Below are positions 1,381-14,337 of a stretch of DNA of 64,000 nucleotides, piece by piece. The notes under the pieces were generated by a model that had not been told where the DNA came from, ran no database searches, and worked only from the letters and a program-made list of their open reading frames with translations. The position numbers and the translations under genes were made by a program. This DNA comes from Escherichia coli (lineage in GTDB: Bacteria; Pseudomonadota; Gammaproteobacteria; Enterobacterales; Enterobacteriaceae): assembly GCF_003018235.1 (NCBI RefSeq), contig NZ_CP027437.1. One strand, 5' to 3'. The first letter of the stretch is position 1; each line of letters begins with the position of its first letter.

Positions 1381-2073
1381 CTAGTGATACCCACGCGCGG
1401 TCATAAAATCCGTAATCGCTTTTTCTGCATCAACCAGTACCTTTTCCAGTGGCTGATTGGCGTCGATATCAACCAGTTGTGCACCACCAAAGGTTAACTG
1501 TGGCGTTATGGCTATCTTTCTTGCCAGCGATTCCCTTTTGTGGTCAGGCTTACGCGCGCAGGCCACGTCTAGATCGACATTGAGTTTGATGACCAGATCA
1601 GGTTTATGGCTCGCCATCCAGTGAAACGCTTTACGTTCCTGGCTTGCCAGCCATGAGACAAAACGACCACCTTCAATGTTAGGTGGGAACACTGTACCAT
1701 CGTAAGCGCCAGGAATTTGGTCCTGAGGATAACGGTCGGTTAGAACAATTAACCCGCGACGACGACAGGCAAGCATATGACGAAAGCGCAGTAAGCGACG
1801 GGCGACAAACGCTGTAATTACCAGCGCCGGAACAGGGCCAGGCAATTTTTTTGCTGTTTTCACCTGATTTCGTTCAATTGTTTTATGTAAGGATTTTCCC
1901 ATCAACGGTAATTTTGTCACTGCACGACCGACATTTCCGGCCTGTTTTCCTAAATGAACTCTTTCGGCTGCACCATATTTTTCGACAACGGTAATGAGAT
2001 GTTCACACACCGTTGACTTGCCTGAACCATCGCTACCAATAACGGCAATTAATGGAGGTGTTATTGACTGCAT
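1381..2073 (-). CDS. yghT: P-loop NTPase, kinase-like (YghT family)
   Basis: 230-aa ORF with Walker [14 protein letters not shown] and a downstream LTDRYP motif resembling the DRY/DRH motif of thymidylate/nucleoside-kinase-fold enzymes; paralogous to the next two genes. Confidence 0.8.
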
Positions 2074-2246: not shown

Positions 2247-2960
2247 GTGAATCAACGTAATATGTCAATAATTAATTCCACGCCAGTGCGTGTTATTGCC
2301 ATTGTAGGATGTGATGGTTCAGGTAAATCGACCCTCACGGCAAGCCTGGTAAATGAACTGGCAGCAAGAATGCCAACAGAACACATTTATCTCGGGCAAT
2401 CGTCCGGGCGAATTGGCGAATGGATTTCACAGCTCCCTGTTATTGGCGCACCTTTTGGGCGTTATTTGCGAAGTAAAGCGGCACATGTGCACGAAAAGCC
2501 CTCAGCACCGCCTGGCAATATTACTGCGCTGGTTATCTATCTGCTTTCCTGCTGGCGGGCGTACAAGTTTCGCAAAATGTTGTGTAAAAGCCAGCAAGGC
2601 TATCTGCTCATCACCGACCGCTACCCGCAGGTTGAAGTGCCGGGTTTTCGCTTTGATGGCCCGCAATTGGCAAAAACCACGGGCGGTAACGGTTGGATAA
2701 AAATGTTAAGGCAGCGCGAGCTGAAGCTGTACCAATGGATGGCGTCTTATTTGCCCGTATTGTTGATTCGTCTTGGCATTGATGAACAAACCGCGTTTGC
2801 GCGTAAACCTGACCACCAACTGGCAGCGTTACAGGAAAAAATCGCCGTTACGCCGCAACTGACATTCAATGGCGCAAAGATCCTTGAACTGGATGGTCGG
2901 CAACCAGCCGATGAAATTATGCAAGCGTCACTACGCGCAATTCACGCCGCGCTTTCCTGA
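2247..2960 (+). CDS. yghS: P-loop NTPase, kinase-like (YghS family)
   Basis: 237-aa ORF with Walker A IAIVGCDGSGKST and ITDRYPQ motif; clear paralog of yghT and yghR; no ABC signature (LSGGQ). Confidence 0.8.
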   Translation: MNQRNMSIINSTPVRVIAIVGCDGSGKSTLTASLVNELAARMPTEHIYLGQSSGRIGEWISQLPVIGAPFGRYLRSKAAHVHEKPSAPPGNITALVIYLLSCWRAYKFRKMLCKSQQGYLLITDRYPQVEVPGFRFDGPQLAKTTGGNGWIKMLRQRELKLYQWMASYLPVLLIRLGIDEQTAFARKPDHQLAALQEKIAVTPQLTFNGAKILELDGRQPADEIMQASLRAIHAALS

Positions 2961-2991: not shown

Positions 2992-3748
2992 ATGGATGCA
3001 CTACAAACACAAACTGTTAAGAGTACAACCGCGCCGCAGCCCAACTACATTCCGGGGCTGATTGCGGTGGTCGGGTGTGATGGCACCGGTAAATCCACGC
3101 TGACCACCGACCTGGTGAAATCGCTGCAACAACACTGGCAAACCGAGCGGCGCTATCTGGGGCTGCTCTCCGGCGAAGACGGCGACAAAATCAAACGATT
3201 GCCGTTGGTTGGCGTCTGGCTGGAACGGCGGCTGGCGGCCAAATCCTCGAAAACCCAAAGCATGAAAACCAAATTTCCAGCGCTATGGGCGGCGGTGATT
3301 ATGTACTGCTTCTCGCTGCGAAGAATGGCGAATCTACGCAAGGTTCAGCGACTGGCGCAAAGTGGCGTTCTGGTGGTCAGCGATCGCTTCCCGCAGGCTG
3401 AAATTTCGGGCTTTTATTATGACGGACCGGGGATCGGCGTCGAACGTGCGACCGGGAAAATCAGCATGTTTCTGGCGCAGCGCGAACGGCGTTTATACCA
3501 ACAAATGGCGCTACCGTCCTGAATTAATCATTCGCCTGGGCATTGATATTGATACTGCCATCTCCCGCAAGCCTGACCATGACTATGCCGAGCTGCAGGA
3601 CAAAATCGGCGTCATGTCGACGATTGGCTATAACGGCACAAAAATTCTTGAGATTGATTCCAGAGCGCCTTACAGCGAGGTGCTGGAACAGGCACAGAAG
3701 GCGGTTTCTCTGGTTGCCATCGTTTCTGACCGCCGAAGTTTAACTTAA
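2992..3748 (+). pseudogene. yghR: P-loop NTPase paralog YghR, apparently frameshifted
   Basis: Paralog homology runs in frame 1 (ORF 2992..3522, Walker A IAVVGCDGTGKST, VSDRFPQ) and then continues in another frame (ORF 3362..3748, RPELIIRLGIDIDTAISRKPDH aligning with yghS LPVLLIRLGIDEQTAFARKPDH). The 757-nt span is not a multiple of 3. Confidence 0.55.
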
Positions 3749-3793: not shown

Positions 3794-5143
3794 TTGGCGG
3801 GTTTTAACATCAAACATTGGTTTGCAGATGGCGCGTTTCGCACCATTATTCGCAATAGCGCCTGGTTAGGCTCCAGTAATGTCGTGAGCGCCTTGCTGGG
3901 TCTGTTGGCGCTCTCGTGTGCCGGTAAAGGGATGACGCCCGCCATGTTTGGCGTACTGGTGATTGTGCAATCGTACGCCAAGTCGATCAGCGATTTTATT
4001 AAGTTTCAGACATGGCAGCTGGTGGTTCAGTACGGAACGCCAGCCTTGACCAACAATAATCCGCAGCAATTTCGCAATGTTGTCTCATTTTCCTTCTCGC
4101 TGGATATCGTCAGCGGCGCGGTGGCGATTGTCGGCGGCATTGCCTTACTGCCATTCCTTTCCCATTCATTAGGTCTGGATGACCAAAGCTTTTGGCTGGC
4201 GGCGCTCTATTGCACGCTCATTCCTTCAATGGCTTCCTCCACGCCGACCGGCATTCTGCGTGCGGTAGATCGCTTTGATTTGATTGCTGTACAGCAGGCG
4301 ACGAAACCTTTTCTGCGCGCAGCGGGGAGCGTCGTAGCCTGGTATTTTGACTTTGGTTTTGCGGGTTTTGTTATTGCCTGGTACGTGTCGAATCTGGTTG
4401 GCGGCACCATGTACTGGTGGTTTGCCGCGCGCGAATTACGCCGCAGAAATATCCATAACACCTTCAAATTGAATCTGTTTGAGTCTGCCCGACACATTAA
4501 AGGCGCGTGGAGTTTTGTCTGGTCAACCAACATTGCCCACTCCATCTGGTCGGCACGTAACTCGTGCAGCACAGTGCTGGTGGGGATCGTGTTAGGACCC
4601 GCTGCCGCCGGGTTATTTAAAATCGCCATGACATTCTTCGACGCCGCCGGAACGCCAGCGGGTTTACTGGGTAAAAGTTTTTACCCAGAGGTGATGCGTT
4701 TAGATCCGCGCACCACCAGACCGTGGTTGTTAGGCGTGAAGTCCGGTTTACTGGCGGGCGGAATCGGTATTCTGGTGGCGCTCGCGGTGTTGATCGTCGG
4801 CAAGCCGCTCATTTCGCTGGTGTTTGGCGTTAAGTATCTCGAAGCGTATGACCTGATTCAGGTGATGCTGGGCGCAATTGTGATTTCGATGCTGGGCTTC
4901 CCACAGGAGTCATTGCTATTGATGGCGGGAAAACAGCGCGCTTTTCTCGTGGCGCAAACCATCGCCTCAATCGGCTACATCGTATTGCTGTTCATGTTCT
5001 GTCATCTGTTTGGCGTGCTGGGGGCTGCATTTGCTTACTTCGCTGGGCAATGTCTGGATGTGGTGTTCTCGCTAATTCCAACCTTAAAGGCATTTTTTCA
5101 GCGCCATTCCTTGCTTTATAACGCAGCCGGAGAGAAATCCTGA
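3794..5143 (+). CDS. yghQ: Polytopic inner-membrane protein, MOP-superfamily flippase-like (YghQ); true start uncertain
   Basis: 449-aa ORF with many hydrophobic segments; I recall YghQ being annotated as a putative polysaccharide/lipid flippase. K-12 protein is shorter by my recollection, so an internal start is possible. Confidence 0.7.
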   Translation: MAGFNIKHWFADGAFRTIIRNSAWLGSSNVVSALLGLLALSCAGKGMTPAMFGVLVIVQSYAKSISDFIKFQTWQLVVQYGTPALTNNNPQQFRNVVSFSFSLDIVSGAVAIVGGIALLPFLSHSLGLDDQSFWLAALYCTLIPSMASSTPTGILRAVDRFDLIAVQQATKPFLRAAGSVVAWYFDFGFAGFVIAWYVSNLVGGTMYWWFAARELRRRNIHNTFKLNLFESARHIKGAWSFVWSTNIAHSIWSARNSCSTVLVGIVLGPAAAGLFKIAMTFFDAAGTPAGLLGKSFYPEVMRLDPRTTRPWLLGVKSGLLAGGIGILVALAVLIVGKPLISLVFGVKYLEAYDLIQVMLGAIVISMLGFPQESLLLMAGKQRAFLVAQTIASIGYIVLLFMFCHLFGVLGAAFAYFAGQCLDVVFSLIPTLKAFFQRHSLLYNAAGEKS

Positions 5144-5967
5144 TGATGAGAAAATATTTCCCGCTTGAGGCTAGCGAGCGTCTATTTGTTGCGATTGAAG
5201 AAGATGATGTCGTTGATGCACAGGTCAGTTTGCCGCCGACTATCGCACTAAGTTGTACCACCGAAATCATCCATGATAATTACGCGTTATGCCTGAAATT
5301 CTGGCTGGATGGTGTTAATCGTCAGGAGCTACTGCGTTTAATCCGCAAACAGGCGAAAGGCGATGAGCTGACGACAGACGAGCGCAAAAAGTATAAATAC
5401 ATGCGAGCGCGCTACAAGCATCTGCGCTTTGCGCAACGGCTGTATTTAAAGAAGCATCAGGCCGGATTTTTATTCGGCAAAACGACCGTTTTTTTGGGGC
5501 GTTTTCAGGACGGCTTTCGTAACGGTAAGAAAAATATTGTGTCGTATTACGGCAACCTGTTACGGGTTTATTTAAGCTCTCCGGTCTGGTCGTTGGTGAA
5601 CTATTCATTACGCCATAGCCAGTTAGAAAGCGTAAGCGGTTTTATTGCCTATCGGCAAAAGCAAATGCATACCCTGAAAGAGATAATTGCCAAACCGCGA
5701 CTAACTGGCAGGGAATTTCATGATGTGCGAAAAATCATCAGCCAGCAGGTTTCTTATTACGACACCCTAAGATCGCTTGATCCTGAAAATAAAGAGGCGT
5801 TACAGATTTCCCGCTTCCTCGCCGCCATTAATGGCCTGATGGGGGATAAACACGACGACATGGTGGCGGATGATATGGAAAACCGCCAGTCGTATGATGC
5901 ACCGGTGGCGCTGGATAGCGATATTCGCCAGCGCTTAGAGCTGCTGATTTCGCGTTTTCCGCTATAA
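5143..5967 (+). CDS. Hypothetical basic protein, 274 aa, function unknown
   Basis: ORF start overlaps the yghQ stop (TGATG), indicating translational coupling; no motif I recognise. Confidence 0.55.
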   Translation: MMRKYFPLEASERLFVAIEEDDVVDAQVSLPPTIALSCTTEIIHDNYALCLKFWLDGVNRQELLRLIRKQAKGDELTTDERKKYKYMRARYKHLRFAQRLYLKKHQAGFLFGKTTVFLGRFQDGFRNGKKNIVSYYGNLLRVYLSSPVWSLVNYSLRHSQLESVSGFIAYRQKQMHTLKEIIAKPRLTGREFHDVRKIISQQVSYYDTLRSLDPENKEALQISRFLAAINGLMGDKHDDMVADDMENRQSYDAPVALDSDIRQRLELLISRFPL

Positions 5968-5975
5968 CCGGAGCA

Positions 5976-6539
5976 ATGATGTCATCTCGTTTGATTATTG
6001 CGCTGATTATCATGCTCTTAGCCCCGGGTGTGCAGGCACACAATTTCGTCACTGGCAAAACGGTTACCCCTGTTTATATCCAGGAAGGCGGCGAGCTGCT
6101 TCTGAATAGCGACGACGAAATTCACTACCAAAAGTGGAACAGCACACAGCTGGCGGGAAAAGTTCGCATTATTCAGTATATCGCCGGGCGTAAGTCGGCG
6201 AAGAAAAAGAACTCACTGTTAATTAAAGCGGTTGAAGCGGCAAACTTTCCGCAGGATCGTTTTCAGCCCACCACCATTGTGAACACCGATGATGCCATTT
6301 TTGGTACTGGCTATTTTGTCGTTGGCAAAATCGAAAAAAATAAACGCCGCTATCCGTGGGCGCAATTCGTTATTGACGGCAATGGACAGGGACGCGTTGC
6401 CTGGCGGTTGCCGGAGCAGAGTTCAACCATTCTGGTGCTGAATAAAGCCGGGCAAATTCAGTGGGCAAAGGACGGCAGCCTGACGCCGGAAGAGGTAGAA
6501 CATGTCATTGCGCTGGCGCAGAAACTGATCAATGAATAA
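5976..6539 (+). CDS. Secreted/periplasmic YtfJ-family protein
   Basis: 187-aa ORF with N-terminal signal peptide (MMSSRLIIALIIMLLAPGVQA then HNF). Blocks TTIVNTDDAI and WAKDGSLTPEEV match my memory of E. coli YtfJ. Confidence 0.6.
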   Translation: MMSSRLIIALIIMLLAPGVQAHNFVTGKTVTPVYIQEGGELLLNSDDEIHYQKWNSTQLAGKVRIIQYIAGRKSAKKKNSLLIKAVEAANFPQDRFQPTTIVNTDDAIFGTGYFVVGKIEKNKRRYPWAQFVIDGNGQGRVAWRLPEQSSTILVLNKAGQIQWAKDGSLTPEEVEHVIALAQKLINE

Positions 6540-6569: not shown

Positions 6570-7640
6570 ATGAAGCTGGTTGAACACTACATCATGCGTG
6601 GTACGCGCCGTCTGGTGCTGATTATCGTCGGTTTTCTGATCTTTATTTTCGCCAGCTACTCCGCACAGCGTTATCTGACCGAAGCGGCAAATGGGACATT
6701 AGCTCTTGATGTTGTGCTGGATATTGTTTTCTACAAGGTGCTGATTGCACTGGAGATGTTGTTACCTGTTGGACTGTATGTGTCAGTTGGCGTGACGCTA
6801 GGGCAGATGTATACCGACTCGGAAATTACCGCTATTTCTGCGGCGGGGGGCAGTCCGGGACGCTTGTACAAAGCCGTTCTTTATCTGGCGATACCGCTAA
6901 GTATTTTTGTCACCCTTCTGTCGATGTATGGTCGTCCGTGGGCTTATGCGCAGATTTATCAACTGGAGCAACAGTCACAGTCGGAGCTGGATGTTCGCCA
7001 GTTGCGGGCAAAGAAATTTAACACTAACGATAACGGACGAATGATCCTTTCGCAGACGGTTGATCAGGATAATAATCGCCTGACTGACGCGCTGATTTAT
7101 ACTTCTACTGCCAATCGAACCCGCATTTTCCGCGCCCGTTCGGTTGATGTGGTTGACCCATCACCTGAGAAACCGACCGTTATGTTGCATAACGGGACCG
7201 CCTATCTTCTCGATCATCAGGGGCGTGACGACAACGAACAGATCTACCGTAATCTGCAATTACATCTGAATCCGCTGGATCAAAGCCCTAACGTCAAACG
7301 CAAAGCAAAATCGGTCACGGAGCTGGCGCGCTCCGCCTTTCCTGCCGATCATGCCGAACTGCAATGGCGACAAAGCCGTGGCCTGACAGCATTGTTGATG
7401 GCGCTGCTGGCCATTTCATTAAGTCGGGTAAAACCGCGGCAAGGGCGATTTTCAACGTTATTGCCACTGACGTTGCTGTTTATTGCCATTTTTTATGGCG
7501 GCGACGTCTGCCGTACGCTGGTGGCTAACGGCGCGATTCCCCTCATTCCTGGTTTGTGGTTAGTACCCGGACTCATGCTAATGGGCCTGCTGATGCTGGT
7601 CGCACGCGACTTCTCATTGCTGCAGAAATTTTCCCGATGA
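6570..7640 (+). CDS. LptF/LptG-family (YjgP/YjgQ) permease, first of a pair
   Basis: 356-aa ORF with N-terminal TM helices, an LGQMYTDSEITAISAAG block resembling LptF LGKLYTESEIT, a central soluble domain and C-terminal TM helices. Confidence 0.7.
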   Translation: MKLVEHYIMRGTRRLVLIIVGFLIFIFASYSAQRYLTEAANGTLALDVVLDIVFYKVLIALEMLLPVGLYVSVGVTLGQMYTDSEITAISAAGGSPGRLYKAVLYLAIPLSIFVTLLSMYGRPWAYAQIYQLEQQSQSELDVRQLRAKKFNTNDNGRMILSQTVDQDNNRLTDALIYTSTANRTRIFRARSVDVVDPSPEKPTVMLHNGTAYLLDHQGRDDNEQIYRNLQLHLNPLDQSPNVKRKAKSVTELARSAFPADHAELQWRQSRGLTALLMALLAISLSRVKPRQGRFSTLLPLTLLFIAIFYGGDVCRTLVANGAIPLIPGLWLVPGLMLMGLLMLVARDFSLLQKFSR

Positions 7641-8716
7641 ATGTTTTCAGTCGCTATTTAATCCGTCATCTCTTTCTCGGTTTTGCCGCCGCCGCAGGGC
7701 TATTGCTGCCGCTTTTTACCACCTTCAACCTGATTAACGAACTGGATGATGTCAGCCCGGGCGGTTATCGCTGGACTCAGGCGGTGCTGGTGGTGCTGAT
7801 GACCTTACCGCGTACACTGGTCGAACTTTCGCCGTTTATCGCATTATTGGGAGGGATTGTTGGCCTGGGGCAGTTATCGAAAAACAGTGAGCTTACCGCC
7901 ATTCGCAGCACGGGGTTTTCTATCTTCCGTATTGCACTAGTGGCGCTGGTTGCCGGGATATTGTGGACTGTTTCGTTAGGCGCGATAGATGAGTGGGTGG
8001 CGTCGCCATTGCAGCAACAGGCGCTGCAAATCAAATCGACTGCCACCGCGTTGGGGGAGGACGATGACATTACCGGCAATATGCTTTGGGCCAGGCGCGG
8101 TAATGAATTTGTGACGGTGAAATCGCTGAACGAGCAGGGCCAGCCTGTGGGCGTGGAGATATTTCATTATCGCGACGATCTCTCGCTCGAATCCTACATT
8201 TTTGCACGCAGTGCCTCCATTGAAGACGACAAAACATGGATCCTGCATGGTGTGAATCATAAAAAATGGTTGAATGGCAAGGAAACGCTGGAAACATCAG
8301 ATAATCTTGCCTGGCAATCGGCCTTCACCAGTATGAATCTTGAAGAGTTATCGATGCCGGGAAATACTTTTTCTGTCCGTCAACTTAATCATTACATCCA
8401 TTATTTGCAGGAAACTGGGCAACCCAGCAGCGAATACCGCCTTGCACTGTGGGAAAAACTGGGACAACCCATCCTGACCCTGGCGATGATTTTGCTGGCT
8501 GTGCCGTTTACCTTTAGTGCCCCGCGTTCGCCTGGGATGGGTAGCCGTCTCGCTGTAGGCGTCATCGTGGGCTTACTTACCTGGATCAGCTATCAAATCA
8601 TGGTCAATCTGGGATTGCTATTTGCGTTGAGCGCACCTGTTACCGCGCTCGGTTTACCGGTAGCGTTTGTGCTGGTGGCGTTGAGCCTGGTGTATTGGTA
8701 TGACAGACAACATTAA
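7637..8716 (+). CDS. LptF/LptG-family (YjgP/YjgQ) permease, second of a pair
   Basis: Start MNVFSRYLIRH overlaps the upstream stop (ATGA at 7637-7640); SELTAIRSTGFS block resembles LptG SELVVMQASGF; same TM - periplasmic domain - TM layout. Confidence 0.7.
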   Translation: MNVFSRYLIRHLFLGFAAAAGLLLPLFTTFNLINELDDVSPGGYRWTQAVLVVLMTLPRTLVELSPFIALLGGIVGLGQLSKNSELTAIRSTGFSIFRIALVALVAGILWTVSLGAIDEWVASPLQQQALQIKSTATALGEDDDITGNMLWARRGNEFVTVKSLNEQGQPVGVEIFHYRDDLSLESYIFARSASIEDDKTWILHGVNHKKWLNGKETLETSDNLAWQSAFTSMNLEELSMPGNTFSVRQLNHYIHYLQETGQPSSEYRLALWEKLGQPILTLAMILLAVPFTFSAPRSPGMGSRLAVGVIVGLLTWISYQIMVNLGLLFALSAPVTALGLPVAFVLVALSLVYWYDRQH

Positions 8717-8717
8717 A

Positions 8718-8744
8718 CCCGCCGTGGCGCAACACCACAGCGGG
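8718..8744. terminator. Hairpin in the 35-bp gap between the convergent permease and Spt-like genes; possible bidirectional terminator
   Basis: cccgccgtgg (8718-8727) and ccacagcggg (8735-8744) form an imperfect inverted repeat with one mismatch. Confidence 0.4.
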
Positions 8745-8750
8745 CTCACA

Positions 8751-9923
8751 TTACTGCTTCAGAGTAGCGAACGCTTGAATGATGGCATCAATTTGCTCAC
8801 GACTGTGGGCAGCGTTTACGCTACAGCGCAGCAGCGTGATGCCTGCAGGCGCGGCAGGTGGCAGGATAAGATTCACATAAACGCCCAGCGAAATAAGCTC
8901 GCGCCAGATGCGTAAACCTTCCTCTTTCGAACCGATTATTACTGGCACTACCGGGCTAATATGTGAACTTAACTCATAATCCAGTTTTTGCAGACCGTCA
9001 TACAGATGGTTGGCATTATCCATCAGCTTTTGCCGCAACTCTGGTTGTGAGACAATGGTTCTTAACGACGAGCGCACGGTCGCAATGCAGGACGGAGAAG
9101 GAGAGGCGGTAAAAATATACGGGCGGCTGCCGTAGCGCAACACTTCCATCGCTTCCGAACCGACAGCAAAACCGCCAATCGAGGCCAGGCTTTTACTGAA
9201 GGTACCAACGATAATATCCACATCATCTTCAACGCCAACGGCTTCAGCCAGTCCGCGCCCCGTTGCGCCTAACACGCCAAACGAATGCGCTTCATCGACA
9301 ATCAAATAACCACCGAGACGACGTTTGATATCAACAATTTCCGCCAGCGGCGCAACGTCACCGAGCATACTGTAGATGCCTTCAACGATGATAATCGCCT
9401 CTTTTGCCCGTTCACCGAGGCGAACCATGCGCCGTTCCAGATCTTTAGCATCGTTATGGCGGAAACGAATAATTTCCGCGCCACCGAGAGAACAGGCGTC
9501 ATAAATACTGGCGTGGCTGTCGGCATCCAGTAACACCACGGCGTTATGGTCGGCAAGTGCGCTGATGACGCCTAAATTAGCGGTATAACCGGTTGAAAAA
9601 ACGATAGCGGTAGGGCGATTAAAAAACTCGGCGATCTCTTTCTCTAACGCCAGATGCGGCGCATAACTGCCGTTTGCCATACGAGAACCGGTGGTGCCGG
9701 TGCCTTGGGCCGCTAACGCTGCCTGACCTTCGGCGATGGCATCATGATTAAAGGTTAAACCGAGATAATTATTGGTCCCGGCCAGAATCACTTTTTTATT
9801 GCCGATCCGACCTTCGGTGGCGGAATACACTTCATCAATACAGGTGCCAAACGGTGTTAACCCGTTGTCACTAAATTGCAGTCGCTCGCCAGCAAGGCGC
9901 GCATATTTATCGTATAGCCCCAT
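8751..9923 (-). CDS. PLP-dependent alpha-oxoamine synthase, serine-palmitoyltransferase-like (Spt/Kbl/BioF family)
   Basis: 390-aa ORF with the PLP-lysine motif GTFSKSLASIGGF and DEAHSFG, as in serine palmitoyltransferase and 8-amino-7-oxononanoate synthase. Confidence 0.8.
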   Translation of the reverse strand: MGLYDKYARLAGERLQFSDNGLTPFGTCIDEVYSATEGRIGNKKVILAGTNNYLGLTFNHDAIAEGQAALAAQGTGTTGSRMANGSYAPHLALEKEIAEFFNRPTAIVFSTGYTANLGVISALADHNAVVLLDADSHASIYDACSLGGAEIIRFRHNDAKDLERRMVRLGERAKEAIIIVEGIYSMLGDVAPLAEIVDIKRRLGGYLIVDEAHSFGVLGATGRGLAEAVGVEDDVDIIVGTFSKSLASIGGFAVGSEAMEVLRYGSRPYIFTASPSPSCIATVRSSLRTIVSQPELRQKLMDNANHLYDGLQKLDYELSSHISPVVPVIIGSKEEGLRIWRELISLGVYVNLILPPAAPAGITLLRCSVNAAHSREQIDAIIQAFATLKQ

Positions 9924-10171
9924 TATTTATTCTCCAGCCATGGAAGTAGTGTTTCCATTAATTGCGCAGGGGTTTTGACATCCAGCAGAATATTAATAGG
10001 AATGGAAATATCGAATCTGTCTTCCAGCATCATTAAGAGATCCATCACTTTGATCGACTCCAGGCCAAGATCGTTGACGAGATCGCTGTCGGGCTTAATT
10101 TCCACACCGTTTTCGACCAAATCCTGTAAACAGGAAAGGATGTAATCCATTACTATTTCACGATTTACCAT
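9923..10171 (-). CDS. Acyl carrier protein
   Basis: 82-aa acidic ORF with phosphopantetheine-attachment motif DLGLESIKVMDL; its stop overlaps the Spt start (TAATG). Confidence 0.75.
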   Translation of the reverse strand: MVNREIVMDYILSCLQDLVENGVEIKPDSDLVNDLGLESIKVMDLLMMLEDRFDISIPINILLDVKTPAQLMETLLPWLENK

Positions 10172-10202: not shown

Positions 10203-11117
10203 TCAAAATAGCCCGTTGCGTAATGCGTGTTCCAGGCTAATCCCGGGAAACCAATTAATATCTTCAGAAATACGGTTATTACTTGCCGACCAGTCGGCAT
10301 GAGTTAATTCACGGATTTTCGAACGAGTCAGCATCGGTTCTTTACCCGCCAGACGGCTCAACGCGGTACTGATATCCGCAAGGCAGGTGAGTAGCGGCAG
10401 AGGAATACCGACCATCCGCACGGAACCGCAACGGGCGTCGGCGGCAAGCTGTCTTACGCGTTGCCAGTCATAGCCTCCGGCGACGCCATCGCATAATTCA
10501 TAGGTTTGCGTCTGTACAGTTTCGGCGCTTAACCACTGACCCACTGCTTGCGCAAAATCGGTGACGTGAAGAAAAGAGAGCTGTGTCTCTGGCGTGCCAA
10601 GTCGTGGCAGCAGGCCGCGCAGCATCCAGTCAAACAGCGGTTTTAACTCTTTATCGCCGGGACCATACACGGCTGTCGGGCGAAAAACGCCCAGCGTAAT
10701 TTCATCAGCCATTGCAGTCAGCCGTTGTTCGGCGACGTGTTTGGAATTTGCGTACCAGGAGAGTTCGGGATGGCGCGCCGCCAGCGAAGAGATAAACAGA
10801 AAACGTTGGCAAAAGCCGCTCTCTTTTGCCGCTTGCATCAGGCGCAGGCTGCCGTCAACGTTACAGCGGGTAAAAATCTCTTCTTTGTGTCCGCGCACTT
10901 GTCCGGCGCAATGGACCACCGCGCTGGCTCCGGCAACCAGTTCGCTAAGCGAATGTGTATCTTCCAGCGAACCGCGCACCCAGATGAGATTATCATTGAC
11001 GTGAGCGCGGGCAGTACGCGTCAATGCGCGAACGTGAAAGCCGCGGGCGAGCAGGTTATCGATAATATATTTACCGATAAACCCGGTAGCGCCCGTCACC
11101 GCGACAGTTTGATTCAT
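10203..11117 (-). CDS. NAD(P)-dependent epimerase/dehydratase-family (extended SDR) reductase, CerR-like
   Basis: 304-aa ORF with N-terminal Rossmann motif VTGATGFIG and catalytic YxxxK (YANSK). Confidence 0.75.
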   Translation of the reverse strand: MNQTVAVTGATGFIGKYIIDNLLARGFHVRALTRTARAHVNDNLIWVRGSLEDTHSLSELVAGASAVVHCAGQVRGHKEEIFTRCNVDGSLRLMQAAKESGFCQRFLFISSLAARHPELSWYANSKHVAEQRLTAMADEITLGVFRPTAVYGPGDKELKPLFDWMLRGLLPRLGTPETQLSFLHVTDFAQAVGQWLSAETVQTQTYELCDGVAGGYDWQRVRQLAADARCGSVRMVGIPLPLLTCLADISTALSRLAGKEPMLTRSKIRELTHADWSASNNRISEDINWFPGISLEHALRNGLF

Positions 11118-12823
11118 GCCAGGGATTCCTGCACATGAAGGCTTGCAGCATAACGTTTTTTCGCTTCCGCACGGGCAGGCTTGCCGGAGGACGTTCGGGG
11201 AATACTGTGGGGCGGCAACAGATCGATAGCCGCTGTTACGCCAAATTCGCTTTGGATCCGTGCTACCAGTGCGTGGATAAGCTGCCCACGACGTTCTTCG
11301 TCGCTGATCCTACACTGGATCTGCAGAATGATTTTTTCCTGGGCGGTAACAAAAGCAATCGCATCGCCAGAATGAATTTCCGGTTCCTGTTCCGCAATAT
11401 ATTCAATATCCTGCGGCCAGATATTACGGCCACGAATAATAATCAGATCTTTAATGCGTCCGGTGACATACAGATAACCGTCCAGCAGATAACCGAGGTC
11501 GCCGGTGTCTAACCAGCCCGTCGCGGCAATCTCGTCTTGTGAAATCTGGTCGCCAAAGTAACCGCTCATCAGGCTAGGGCCGGAGATGCAAATATGGCCT
11601 ACCACACGTTCCGCGACAGGTATACCTGCTTCATTGCGGATTTCAATGCCATGTTCCGGCAACGCTTTACCGCAGTTGACGAAAGTCGATACGGCGCGTG
11701 TTTCAGCATCCGGCGCGACGGCTTTGCCCTGATATTCGAGGATGTCGCGATCCACTTCGTTAACCACAACCCCGGAAGCTTCATCAGAGAAGCTGACAGC
11801 CAGCGCATTTTCTGCCAGTCCGTAGCACGGCATGAAAGTTTTATCGTCAAAGTTGACCTGACGGAAACATTCAGCGAATTGATGGAGTTGTTCTGCGGAG
11901 ATGGGTTCTGCACCAATACCAGCGACGCGCCAGCAGGAAAGATCCAGTTCAGCGAGATCTTTTTCATTCACGCGGCGCTGGCACAATTCATAGCCAAACG
12001 GCGGCGCAACGGAAACGGTGCCGCGATTTTTACTGATCAATTTAAGCCATTGCAGAGGACGCATGGCAAAATCCTGAGTGCGCAAATAATCTACTGAAAG
12101 CTGCGTGGCGACGGGGGGCAGGAGAAAGCCGACCAGTCCCATATCATGGTAGAAAGGCAGCCAGGAGACGCAGCGGTCGCCAGGGCGTAATTTAATGCCA
12201 TCGTGGCTTATAGCACGTAGATTAGCCATCACTTCGCGATGGGTGATAATGACGCCACGGGGAAAACGGGTGCTGCCGGAGGTGTACTGGAGGTAGGCGA
12301 TATCGTTCGGAACTGGACGCTGGAGCGCAACATCGGCTTCCGGTAATGCCTTAAACCAGGCGTGGCTTAAAACATGTAATTCGGGGTTGTTATGCGTAGC
12401 GGCATTGACCAGTGGCAACCACTCATCACCAGTGATAATGGCTGCGGGCTGGCAACTTGCCAGTAAACCCTGCAGTTTGGCGCTCCAGGAATCCCGCTGA
12501 CCGACGCCCATTGGAATCGCCAACGGGACGGCGACTAAGCCGGCATACTGGCAGGAAAAAAAAGCCTCTACGAACCCGCTACTGGTTTCGGCAATCAGCG
12601 CCACGCGATCGCCTTTTTTCAGGTTCAGCGATAACAACCGCTTCGCACCAGCTTCGGCACGCGCTTTTAACGTCTGATATTCCAGTTGATCTTCAAGTTG
12701 GCAACGTCTGTCATAAAAATTCATTCCGGCGCTACTCAGAGCGGCGTAGTCCAAAGCATCAACCAGCGTTGGAAAATCGGCATAGCGCATAGGTAGGGAA
12801 TGCGTAAAGATTTTATTAGACAT
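11114..12823 (-). CDS. Fatty-acyl-AMP ligase / acyl-ACP synthetase (AMP-binding superfamily)
   Basis: Adenylation motifs YTSGSTRFPRGV and TGDLGY...GRIKDLIIIRGRNI; stop overlaps the reductase start (ATGA). Start taken at the ATG for MSNKIF; the ORF track extends to 12850 on a TTG. Confidence 0.8.
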   Translation of the reverse strand: MSNKIFTHSLPMRYADFPTLVDALDYAALSSAGMNFYDRRCQLEDQLEYQTLKARAEAGAKRLLSLNLKKGDRVALIAETSSGFVEAFFSCQYAGLVAVPLAIPMGVGQRDSWSAKLQGLLASCQPAAIITGDEWLPLVNAATHNNPELHVLSHAWFKALPEADVALQRPVPNDIAYLQYTSGSTRFPRGVIITHREVMANLRAISHDGIKLRPGDRCVSWLPFYHDMGLVGFLLPPVATQLSVDYLRTQDFAMRPLQWLKLISKNRGTVSVAPPFGYELCQRRVNEKDLAELDLSCWRVAGIGAEPISAEQLHQFAECFRQVNFDDKTFMPCYGLAENALAVSFSDEASGVVVNEVDRDILEYQGKAVAPDAETRAVSTFVNCGKALPEHGIEIRNEAGIPVAERVVGHICISGPSLMSGYFGDQISQDEIAATGWLDTGDLGYLLDGYLYVTGRIKDLIIIRGRNIWPQDIEYIAEQEPEIHSGDAIAFVTAQEKIILQIQCRISDEERRGQLIHALVARIQSEFGVTAAIDLLPPHSIPRTSSGKPARAEAKKRYAASLHVQESLA

Positions 12824-13194
12824 ATACACCACGAAAAAATTGGATATCAAAAATAAAATGACAATAATGCGGTGGATTATATAGGCATAAAAGATAAATG
12901 AGATAGTATTTTCATCAGTGTGAAAATGAACATTGATTTAAATAATGAGTTTGAGTTTTTTTGTTTTTATTGTGAATGATATTTAATTTATGAATGTATT
13001 AAGAAGAAGCCTTGTCCGGTCGCCTTAAATCGACAAAAGGCATTGTGGCGCTTCTGTGTAGTCTCTGACCTTATCGTAATCATTAATAAATGCTATTTAT
13101 TCGTCGTTTGTATTCATTGGGTTGATTATTAAGGTGCCGTTCGTTGCTGTTGCAACCTGTTTGTCACCGTTAATTATTTGTTACCCACAGAACT
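12824..13194. promoter_or_regulatory. AT-rich divergent control region between the lipid operon (-) and yghO (+)
   Basis: ~370 bp of visibly AT-rich non-coding DNA with A/T tracts between two divergently oriented starts; typical of divergent promoters and H-NS-bound regions. No specific site identified. Confidence 0.45.
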
Positions 13195-14337
13195 ATGGAA
13201 TGCGATCTGCTGATGATTAAAATTGAAAAAGTAATTAATAAAAATGACCTTAAGGCATTTATCGCTTTTCCGTCATCACTTTATCCCGACGATCCAAACT
13301 GGATACCCCCTTTATTCATTGAACGCAACGAGCATTTGTCTGCGAAAAATCCGGGGACGGACCATATCATCTGGCAGGCGTGGGTGGCAAAAAAAGCCGG
13401 GCAGATAGTTGGGCGAATTACCGCGCAAATCGATACCTTGCACCGTGAGCGTTACGGTGAAGATACCGGTCATTTCGGCATGATTGACGCCATTGATGAT
13501 CCGCAGGTTTTTGCCGCGTTGTTTGGCGCAGCGGAAGCGTGGTTGAAGTCACAAGGAGCAAGTAAGATCAGCGGGCCTTTCAGCCTGAATATCAATCAGG
13601 AAAGCGGATTACTGATTGAAGGTTTCGATACACCACCCTGTGCGATGATGCCGCACGGTAAACCGTGGTATGCCGCGCATATTGAACAATTGGGTTATCA
13701 CAAAGGCATTGATTTACTGGCGTGGTGGATGCAGCGAACCGATCTCACTTTCTCTCCGGCGCTAAAAAAACTGATGGATCAGGTGCGTAAGAAGGTGACC
13801 ATTCGCTGCATCAATCGCCAGCGGTTTGCCGAAGAGATGCAGATCCTGCGTGAGATTTTCAACTCTGGCTGGCAGCACAACTGGGGATTTGTGCCGTTTA
13901 CCGAACATGAATTCGCGACCATGGGCGATCAACTTAAATATCTGGTGCCGGACGATATGATCTACATCGCTGAGATTGATTCTGCACCCTGCGCGTTTAT
14001 TGTCGGCTTGCCAAACATCAACGAGGCGATTGCCGATCTGAACGGATCGCTCTTTCCCTTCGGCTGGGCAAAATTGCTGTGGCGTTTAAAAGTCAGCGGT
14101 GTGCGAACTGCGCGAGTACCGCTGATGGGCGTGCGGGACGAGTATCAGTTTAGCCGCATCGGCCCGGTGATTGCGCTGTTATTGATTGAAGCCTTACGCG
14201 ATCCGTTTGCCCGCCGGAAGATCGATGCGCTGGAAATGTCATGGATCCTCGAAACCAATACAGGCATGAATAACATGCTGGAACGCATTGGGGCGGAGCC
14301 GTACAAGCGTTACCGATTGTATGAAAAGCAGATTTAA
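13195..14337 (+). CDS. yghO: YghO, candidate N-acyltransferase (possibly GNAT-like), intact here
   Basis: 380-aa ORF next to glcC, which is where yghO sits in E. coli. The acyltransferase assignment is from recollection of annotation and context, not from a motif I can verify. Start could be M7 (MIKIEKV). Confidence 0.65.
   Translation: MECDLLMIKIEKVINKNDLKAFIAFPSSLYPDDPNWIPPLFIERNEHLSAKNPGTDHIIWQAWVAKKAGQIVGRITAQIDTLHRERYGEDTGHFGMIDAIDDPQVFAALFGAAEAWLKSQGASKISGPFSLNINQESGLLIEGFDTPPCAMMPHGKPWYAAHIEQLGYHKGIDLLAWWMQRTDLTFSPALKKLMDQVRKKVTIRCINRQRFAEEMQILREIFNSGWQHNWGFVPFTEHEFATMGDQLKYLVPDDMIYIAEIDSAPCAFIVGLPNINEAIADLNGSLFPFGWAKLLWRLKVSGVRTARVPLMGVRDEYQFSRIGPVIALLLIEALRDPFARRKIDALEMSWILETNTGMNNMLERIGAEPYKRYRLYEKQI

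Follow-up and report, generated by a model that had tools for sequence, protein, structure and literature searches.

A predicted CHAD-fold protein encoded with the flippase-like YghQ in a sphingolipid gene island of Escherichia coli

How sphingolipids leave the inner membrane of bacteria is only now being worked out. In Caulobacter crescentus, the locus CC_1152-CC_1168 comprises spt, acpR, aasR, cerR, cerS, the cpg head-group genes, a putative flippase (CC_1166) and LptF2/G2/C2. Published work on this organism revealed that inner-membrane sphingolipids are not removed without the LptF2/G2 homologues, and states that a flippase for bacterial sphingolipids has not been identified. A second described system is PPK3, a heteromeric polyphosphate kinase made of two thymidylate (dTMP) kinase paralogues with one degenerate regulatory subunit, the operon of which in Sulfolobus acidocaldarius (saci_2017-2021) encodes SixA, PPX, both dTMP-kinase paralogues and a CHAD protein; the structure 2plr is a homologue of its catalytic subunit (PMC12995831). 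CHAD domains consist of two four-helix bundles with a basic cavity, and bind polyphosphate via an H-x-x-R-x3-R motif (Lorenzo-Orts et al., 10.1101/567040). The present analysis deals with a gene of Escherichia coli (hereafter the target) located in a stretch of 64,000 nucleotides of contig NZ_CP027437.1 (assembly GCF_003018235.1), which is referred to as the window. The target (5143-5967, plus strand) codes for 274 amino acids and lies directly downstream of the flippase-like gene yghQ in an island of sphingolipid genes. Its product is predicted to belong to a divergent subfamily of the CHAD fold.

The first-pass annotation had recognised no motif in the target. This was borne out at the level of family profiles, as scans with Pfam and NCBIfam gave no match, even at E<=10. 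The claim did not stand at the level of structure. Remote homology search and structure prediction, which had been recommended in the same annotation, pointed to a CHAD fold. The AlphaFold2 model, built from an alignment of 77 sequences, is all-helical with a predicted local distance difference test score (pLDDT) of 96.9 and a predicted template modelling score of 0.93. Foldseek retrieved 6qv5, a CHAD protein of Ricinus, with a probability of 0.93, and the structural neighbours of the model are CHAD domains. The model displays the features by which the fold is defined, namely an all-alpha composition, two four-helix bundles and a pseudo-two-fold symmetry. Distant relatives of the target were also found to match the Pfam CHAD model. 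With phmmer, 204 relatives were obtained from 1.84 billion cluster representatives (relatives being counted as clusters at 50% identity), mostly of 270-300 amino acids and with identities down to approximately 25%. PF05235 was matched by 25 of the 77 family members, with a best E-value of 1.7e-8. Three longer relatives, P0190 (40.9 bits), P0250 (36.8) and P0257 (30.7), are above the CHAD gathering score of 25.6 bits, and match the target at E-values from 1e-26 to 5e-11.

According to the model, the target shares its fold with the CHAD domains of PF05235, including, besides 6qv5, Chlorobium CtCHAD (3e0s), the 'phosin' PptA of Streptomyces (6rn5) and the C-terminal domain of E. coli YgiF (5a61), although the identity to these structures is 9-17%. 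Four residues (R88, D123, H193 and R196) are invariant in the 77-sequence alignment, and 90% or more of the sequences have retained eleven others (K92, R95, H105, G119, K197, N230, M233, G234, H237, D238 and Y251). Two conserved strings stand out, H193-x-x-R196-K197 and K85-x-x-R88-x3-K92-x2-R95, which resemble the H-x-x-R-x3-R motif that contacts polyphosphate in CtCHAD and SsCHAD. The two halves of the sequence display parallel motifs, F-K85-x-x-R88...M-G119-x-x-Q-D123 and F-H193-x-x-R196...M-G234-x-x-H237-D238, which would fit the pseudo-two-fold architecture of CHAD; the alignment of one half with the other is weak (E 0.006). In contrast to known CHAD proteins, the target has a conserved N-terminal extension (residues 1-39) and a reduced arginine ladder in the second half, and it is encoded among lipid genes and next to a membrane flippase instead of with ppk, ppx or CYTH enzymes. 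Such a context has not been described for CHAD proteins in the literature that was searched. Two other assignments were discarded. In SEED, the protein is labelled 'TPR repeat protein, clustered with yghQ', but Pfam gives no TPR match for it, and the structural neighbours are CHAD and not TPR proteins; one homologue scores TPR_11 at E 0.076. A role as substitute for LptB or LptC was rejected as well, the model being all-alpha, with neither P-loop nor transmembrane segment.

As noticed in the first-pass annotation, the target starts on the stop codon of yghQ. The latter gene (3794-5143, plus strand) is full length in the window and encodes a membrane protein of 449 amino acids resembling MOP/Wzx-type (Polysacc_synt) flippases (PF01943, 4.7e-11; MOP flippase in NCBIfam). 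Its TGA at 5141-5143 and the ATG of the target at 5143-5145 overlap by one nucleotide in TGATG (5141-5145), a signature of translational coupling; a second ATG follows at 5146. The 3' end of yghQ contains a Shine-Dalgarno-like site (GGAGAG, 5129-5134), placed 8 nt ahead of the ATG, and GAGAG- or GGAG-like strings occupy the equivalent place in the junction sequences of most related loci. It is reasonable to expect from this arrangement that the target is produced stoichiometrically with YghQ. The protein is basic, as had been stated, with a pI of 9.39 and 43 Lys and Arg versus 34 Asp and Glu; the basic charge is clustered at residues 61-210, both ends being acidic. No hydrophobic segment was detected (maximum KD19 of 0.82), and the protein is therefore predicted to be soluble and cytoplasmic. 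The identical open reading frame (ORF) of strain 200164 (100% DNA identity) is annotated in RefSeq as 'hypothetical protein' (WP_000984965.1). A literature survey on yghQ/R/S/T and on the BL21 locus tags ECD_02855-02859 gave no functional study of the target, which agrees with its earlier description as uncharacterised; papers on chlorhexidine and on silkworm deal only with the truncated yghQ of K-12.

The gene neighbourhood was compared across 76 loci, obtained by a pattern scan with one genome per species and screened with the island proteins. They originate from many genera of Enterobacterales, from Luteibacter/Rhodanobacter/Dyella, Sphingomonadales, Carnimonas and Acetobacteraceae. A yghQ homologue is found directly upstream of the target homologue and on the same strand in 66 loci of Enterobacterales, Rhodanobacteraceae, Sphingomonadales and Acetobacteraceae. 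Stop and start codons overlap in 54 of these (34 times as ATGA, 12 times as TGATG or TAATG), the gap amounts to 0-13 nt in 11 and to 33 nt in one. Overlapping or abutting order was observed in 65 of the 66 evaluable loci, in alpha- as well as gammaproteobacteria, which upholds the proposal of the first-pass annotation that the target belongs functionally to the lipid island and to the flippase-like gene. The position and orientation of lptFG, the spt block and yghRST vary among the loci, while the yghQ-target pair is constant.

The co-occurrence of the target with spt, also suggested earlier as a check, was confirmed in part. In gammaproteobacteria, spt is located at most 10 kb from the target in 43 of 50 Enterobacterales loci and in all five of Rhodanobacteraceae, but within the same distance it was found in none of the 15 loci of Sphingomonadales. 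Sphingolipid genes were reported to be scattered in the latter order. All 15 Sphingomonadales loci nevertheless harbour two or three kinase paralogues and yghQ ahead of the target, and YghRST-like genes are present in nearly all target loci. The steadiest partners of the target are the kinases, followed by the flippase, and not spt. Even relatives with 27-31% identity to the target still adjoin YghT-like kinases (45-49% identical) in the absence of an adjacent yghQ, as in the loci L006 (4867-5547) and L092 (5470-6150 and 7059-7709). An NTP_transf_3 gene is present in both, and L092 has in addition a PEMT gene, another copy of the kinase and a MOP flippase gene. A metagenomic homologue with 40% identity belongs to the same four-gene unit, next to a PAP2 gene and a two-component system.

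Further copies of the CHAD-like gene were observed in several genomes. In P0250 (976 residues; locus L009, 10001-12931), a phosphotransferase domain of the APH/choline-kinase type is fused to two tandem CHAD-like units. In Luteibacter species, two tandem copies come after yghQ (L055, 10001-10807 and 10960-11763; L060, 9152-9955 and 10001-10816). Unlinked second copies adjoin envelope-lipid genes coding for an LpxO-like hydroxylase, an ArnT-like PMT_2 protein or a GT2 protein. In Pluralibacter (L027, L035) a BCCT transporter gene precedes the second copy by about 350 nt, and the LpxO-like Asp/Asn beta-hydroxylase gene is found a few kb upstream. In Carnimonas (L065) the second copy stands between the ArnT-like PMT_2 and GT2 genes on its upstream side and a two-component system downstream.

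The kinase genes of the island are yghS (2247-2960, plus strand), yghR (2992-3748, plus strand) and the divergently transcribed yghT (1381-2073, minus strand), all paralogues of the P-loop dTMP-kinase superfamily. E. coli has a canonical tmk gene elsewhere in its genome. In 30 sequences of the YghR, YghS and YghT types, the P-loop GxDGxGK(S/T), a DR motif and a lid-like RKxDH motif are invariant. The three paralogues of E. coli have the appearance of catalytically active enzymes. The YghR/S/T profile matched thymidylate kinases over the full length (approximately 5e-7) and the closest structures are dTMP kinases, with 164 of the 237 residues of YghS being aligned. The profile reached 2plr at an E-value of 0.018, and 2plr is no closer to YghS than ordinary dTMP kinases are. 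Compared to dTMP kinases, the YghS model shows an extra helical insertion with hydrophobic stretches at residues ~50-90, modelled at a pLDDT of 63-69, which could be a membrane- or lipid-binding element.

By analogy, the resemblance of this gene organisation to the PPK3 operon appears striking, since several dTMP-kinase-superfamily paralogues stand beside a predicted CHAD-fold protein in nearly all target loci. The two systems differ in that the E. coli island has three paralogues with intact catalytic motifs and no degenerate subunit, and adds a MOP flippase and LptF/G paralogues. Neither PPX nor SixA was found in the annotated island region.

The analysis shows that the modelled fold of the target is that of CHAD domains, that its order with yghQ and YghRST-like kinase genes is conserved, and that it is linked to spt in gammaproteobacteria. 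From this, we infer ligand binding, the nature of the ligand, a contact with YghQ or the kinases, each transport step and the direction of flow as follows. The target would bind a ligand rich in phosphate in the cytoplasm, without being an enzyme itself, and would work as one sphingolipid-linked module with YghQ and YghR/S/T, an account to which we give roughly an even chance of being correct. Enzymes of the dTMP-kinase type phosphorylate a phosphate acceptor, and MOP flippases such as Wzx and MurJ move pyrophosphate-linked lipids. The YghR/S/T kinases would generate an anionic group with much phosphate. As dTMP kinases, which they resemble, attach phosphate to phosphate, this group is most plausibly the head group of a sphingolipid in phosphorylated or pyrophosphorylated form. 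The CHAD-like protein, co-produced with YghQ through the stop/start overlap, would bind this head group via the helices carrying K85/R88/K92/R95 and H193/R196/K197. It may hold the group, present it or hand it over to YghQ at the cytoplasmic face, or gate YghQ, for flipping. The flipped lipid would then be extracted by the LptF2/G2 permeases towards the outer membrane.

Several observations weigh against this proposal. The target gives no match to PF05235, even at the permissive threshold mentioned above, and none of ten yghQ-coupled orthologues reaches the gathering score, nine giving no match and one 15.3 bits. Comparison of the family profile with the CHAD domain of E. coli YgiF by hhalign found nothing (probability 0.3%); a single 'short' CHAD sequence makes a poor template. 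The second-half motif lacks the downstream arginines of canonical CHAD. No PPK1, PPK2, PPX or CYTH gene was found within 10 kb, either in the window, in the Pfam-annotated contexts or in the 76 related loci as screened with the island proteins; the dTMP-kinase-like paralogues are all that occurs there. The stop/start overlap could result from operon compaction alone. Caulobacter makes and exports anionic sphingolipids with no target homologue in its locus, and no binding, interaction or lipid data for the target were found in the searchable literature. As both the Pfam model and the YgiF comparison fail, the target is called a divergent CHAD-fold subfamily and not a Pfam CHAD member. Sequence searches of the PDB gave only noise with the target (phmmer, E>0.5), only an interferon with the family profile (E 0.12), and no match with the CHAD-positive relative P0190 (phmmer).

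Among the alternatives, the best surviving one, which we nevertheless consider rather unlikely, is that the target is a structural or regulatory cytoplasmic subunit of YghQ, such as a plug, a chaperone or an assembly factor, in which the CHAD-like bundle is reused for protein contact and binds no phosphate ligand. The conserved gene pair with its overlapping stop and start codons would be expected in this case too, and the clade has diverged so far that the Pfam CHAD model no longer reaches it, with part of the canonical arginine ladder gone. The conserved residues, however, do not have the appearance of a hydrophobic interface: R88, D123, H193, R196, K92, R95, K197, H237 and D238 are charged or histidine, and their pseudo-symmetric arrangement is rather that of a ligand site. 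Moreover, relatives exist which are accompanied by kinases but by no adjacent flippase (L006), or which are fused to a kinase.

The target could also be a classical polyphosphate-granule protein ('phosin') that binds free inorganic polyphosphate, and YghR/S/T a bacterial PPK3-like polyphosphate kinase, with an indirect link to the lipid island, for example through phosphate or energy supply next to pitB. We regard this as improbable. The stop/start overlap, which is tight and conserved over a wide range, joins the target to a membrane flippase, the neighbours are always envelope-lipid genes (spt, lptFG, LpxO-like, ArnT-like, PAP2, PEMT), and neither PPX, SixA nor PPK genes were found nearby. 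All three kinases have kept their catalytic motifs, unlike PPK3 with its degenerate regulatory subunit, and the similarity to 2plr does not exceed that to ordinary dTMP kinases. Adjacency to pitB was seen in only 9 of the 50 Enterobacterales loci.

A role as enzyme was raised in the first-pass annotation, which considered the target as either an accessory factor or a tailoring enzyme of the lipid system. The protein would then act on the lipid head group, for example as a metal-dependent phosphatase, phosphotransferase or hydrolase, the His/Asp pairs forming the active site. It is true that H105, H193, H237, D123 and D238 vary little or not at all, and that helical-bundle metalloenzymes exist. 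No catalytic CHAD domain is reported in the searched literature, which makes this possibility the least supported of the three, and we judge it quite improbable. Since known CHAD domains are non-catalytic polyphosphate binders, the accessory factor is favoured over the tailoring enzyme.

Finally, the lack of a domain match and a G+C content of 46.9% (window mean 51.8%) could suggest a spurious ORF or an island remnant in decay. This is almost certainly wrong in view of the strong conservation of the ORF, of homologues in two proteobacterial classes and of the highly confident structure prediction. Of 5426 complete E. coli genomes, 4165 gave a match to the DNA of the target, which was full length (coverage of at least 80%) in 4127. 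The ratio of nonsynonymous to synonymous substitutions (dN/dS) towards three other Escherichia lineages is 0.068-0.070 at a dS of 0.63-0.71, which is within the range of the neighbouring genes (0.03-0.15 overall; 0.03-0.04 for both yghQ and spt, 0.09-0.13 for ytfJ). Full-length clusters of 274-278 amino acids comprise thousands of member sequences, and truncated forms are rare. The target is a genuine gene under purifying selection, and the check set in the first-pass annotation, conservation of the intact ORF in related genomes with the rest of the island, did not speak against it. Minus-strand ORFs within the region (92, 97 and 76 amino acids) were disfavoured in view of the strongly conserved plus-strand frame.

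With the CHAD-fold binder as the preferred explanation, the island can be compared to that of Caulobacter. Both loci have in common the clustering of the core ceramide genes with a putative flippase of the Polysacc_synt type and LptF/G paralogues. In the Caulobacter locus, however, neither the target nor YghR/S/T has a counterpart by homology, and the cpg head-group genes of this locus are lacking in E. coli. Due to these differences, the island of the Enterobacterales type probably makes a different head group. The lack of a target homologue in the Caulobacter locus also implies that the target is not a general requirement for sphingolipid export. A possible homology with CC_1167 was rejected, the latter being glycerophosphotransferase-like.

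What recurs in the several proteobacterial orders sampled is a three-part unit of dTMP-kinase-like kinases, a YghQ MOP flippase and a hidden CHAD-fold protein. Recognition of the fold leads to the testable idea that phosphate-chain chemistry takes part in head-group synthesis or export in the island, and would carry the CHAD fold beyond polyphosphate granules into membrane transport. If the target does bind a lipid-linked phosphate, it would offer a handle on the substrate of YghQ and possibly a probe for the lipid. A bolder version, which we see as a long shot, is that the product made and exported by the YghR/S/T-YghQ-CHAD module is an oligo- or polyphosphate anchored to a lipid. Starting from the phosphate of ceramide, or of another lipid, the three dTMP-kinase-like enzymes would attach one phosphate after another through phosphoanhydride bonds, while the CHAD-like protein holds on to the lengthening chain at the membrane. 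Translocation would be the task of the MOP flippase, and transfer to the outer membrane that of LptF2/G2. If true, many E. coli, other Enterobacterales and sphingomonads would have a surface lipid of a hitherto unknown, highly anionic class.

The target is followed after 8-11 nt by a gene of the YtfJ family (5976-6539, plus strand, with a RefSeq start at 5979; PF09695, 1.3e-59; TIGR01626), which accompanies it in 48 of the 50 Enterobacterales loci and in none of those of Sphingomonadales or Rhodanobacteraceae. Downstream are the LptF paralogue (6570-7640, plus strand; PF03739, 4.1e-54) and the LptG paralogue (7637-8716, plus strand, RefSeq start; PF03739, 1.6e-68), resembling the LptF2 and LptG2 permeases, respectively. 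The plus-strand genes from yghS to lptG are spaced by at most 45 nt. A promoter-like site was detected in the yghT-yghS gap and a strong hairpin after lptG, with nothing above chance between them; judging from the sequence, yghS-lptG looks like a single operon with the LptG paralogue as its last gene. The hairpin, G+C-rich and with 16 bp, is located at 8714-8748 between the convergent lptG-like and spt genes, and is probably a bidirectional terminator.

On the minus strand follow spt (8751-9923), encoding serine palmitoyltransferase, whose orthologue in E. coli B (ECD_02854) has been characterised, acpR for a specialised acyl carrier protein (ACP; 9923-10171), cerR/epi for an NAD-dependent epimerase-family homologue of ceramide reductase (10203-11117) and aasR for a fatty acyl-AMP ligase/acyl-ACP synthetase (11114-12850). 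The gene yghO (13195-14337, plus strand) encodes an acyl-CoA N-acyltransferase homologous to bacterial ceramide synthase. These five ceramide genes correspond to the E. coli B set ECD_02850-02854, which was studied biochemically (Padilla-Gomez et al., PMC9386255). The twin region of strain 200164 displays in RefSeq the order pitB, yghT (minus strand), yghS-yghR-yghQ-target-YtfJ-lptF-lptG (plus strand), then the minus-strand genes for Spt, ACP, epimerase and ligase, yghO and glcC. Alignment with the intact yghR of that strain (759 bp) revealed a 2-bp deletion near 3511-3512 (GGCGC--TACC) in the window, by which the gene is frameshifted and split into overlapping ORFs at 2992-3522 and 3362-3748. 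This indicates either a pseudogene in the present strain or a sequencing error.

The module is present in about three quarters of the complete E. coli genomes, including the common laboratory B strains, and is deleted in K-12. K-12 MG1655 has no target, as IS5 and a deletion took out the region from the 3' part of yghQ up to yghO. At 3129043-3132408 of its genome, IS5 (insH9) stands between a truncated yghQ (355 amino acids) and yghO, and the genes from the ytfJ-like gene to aasR are gone. Since yghQ of K-12 is truncated at this junction, work on yghQ in K-12 concerns a remnant, and the deletion may help to explain why the module went unstudied. Another deletion variant was observed in E. coli SW07091, where the target breaks off after ~48 codons, with the junction near spt, and where a truncated aasR abuts partial type II secretion genes (gspD, gspE, gspF and gspL).

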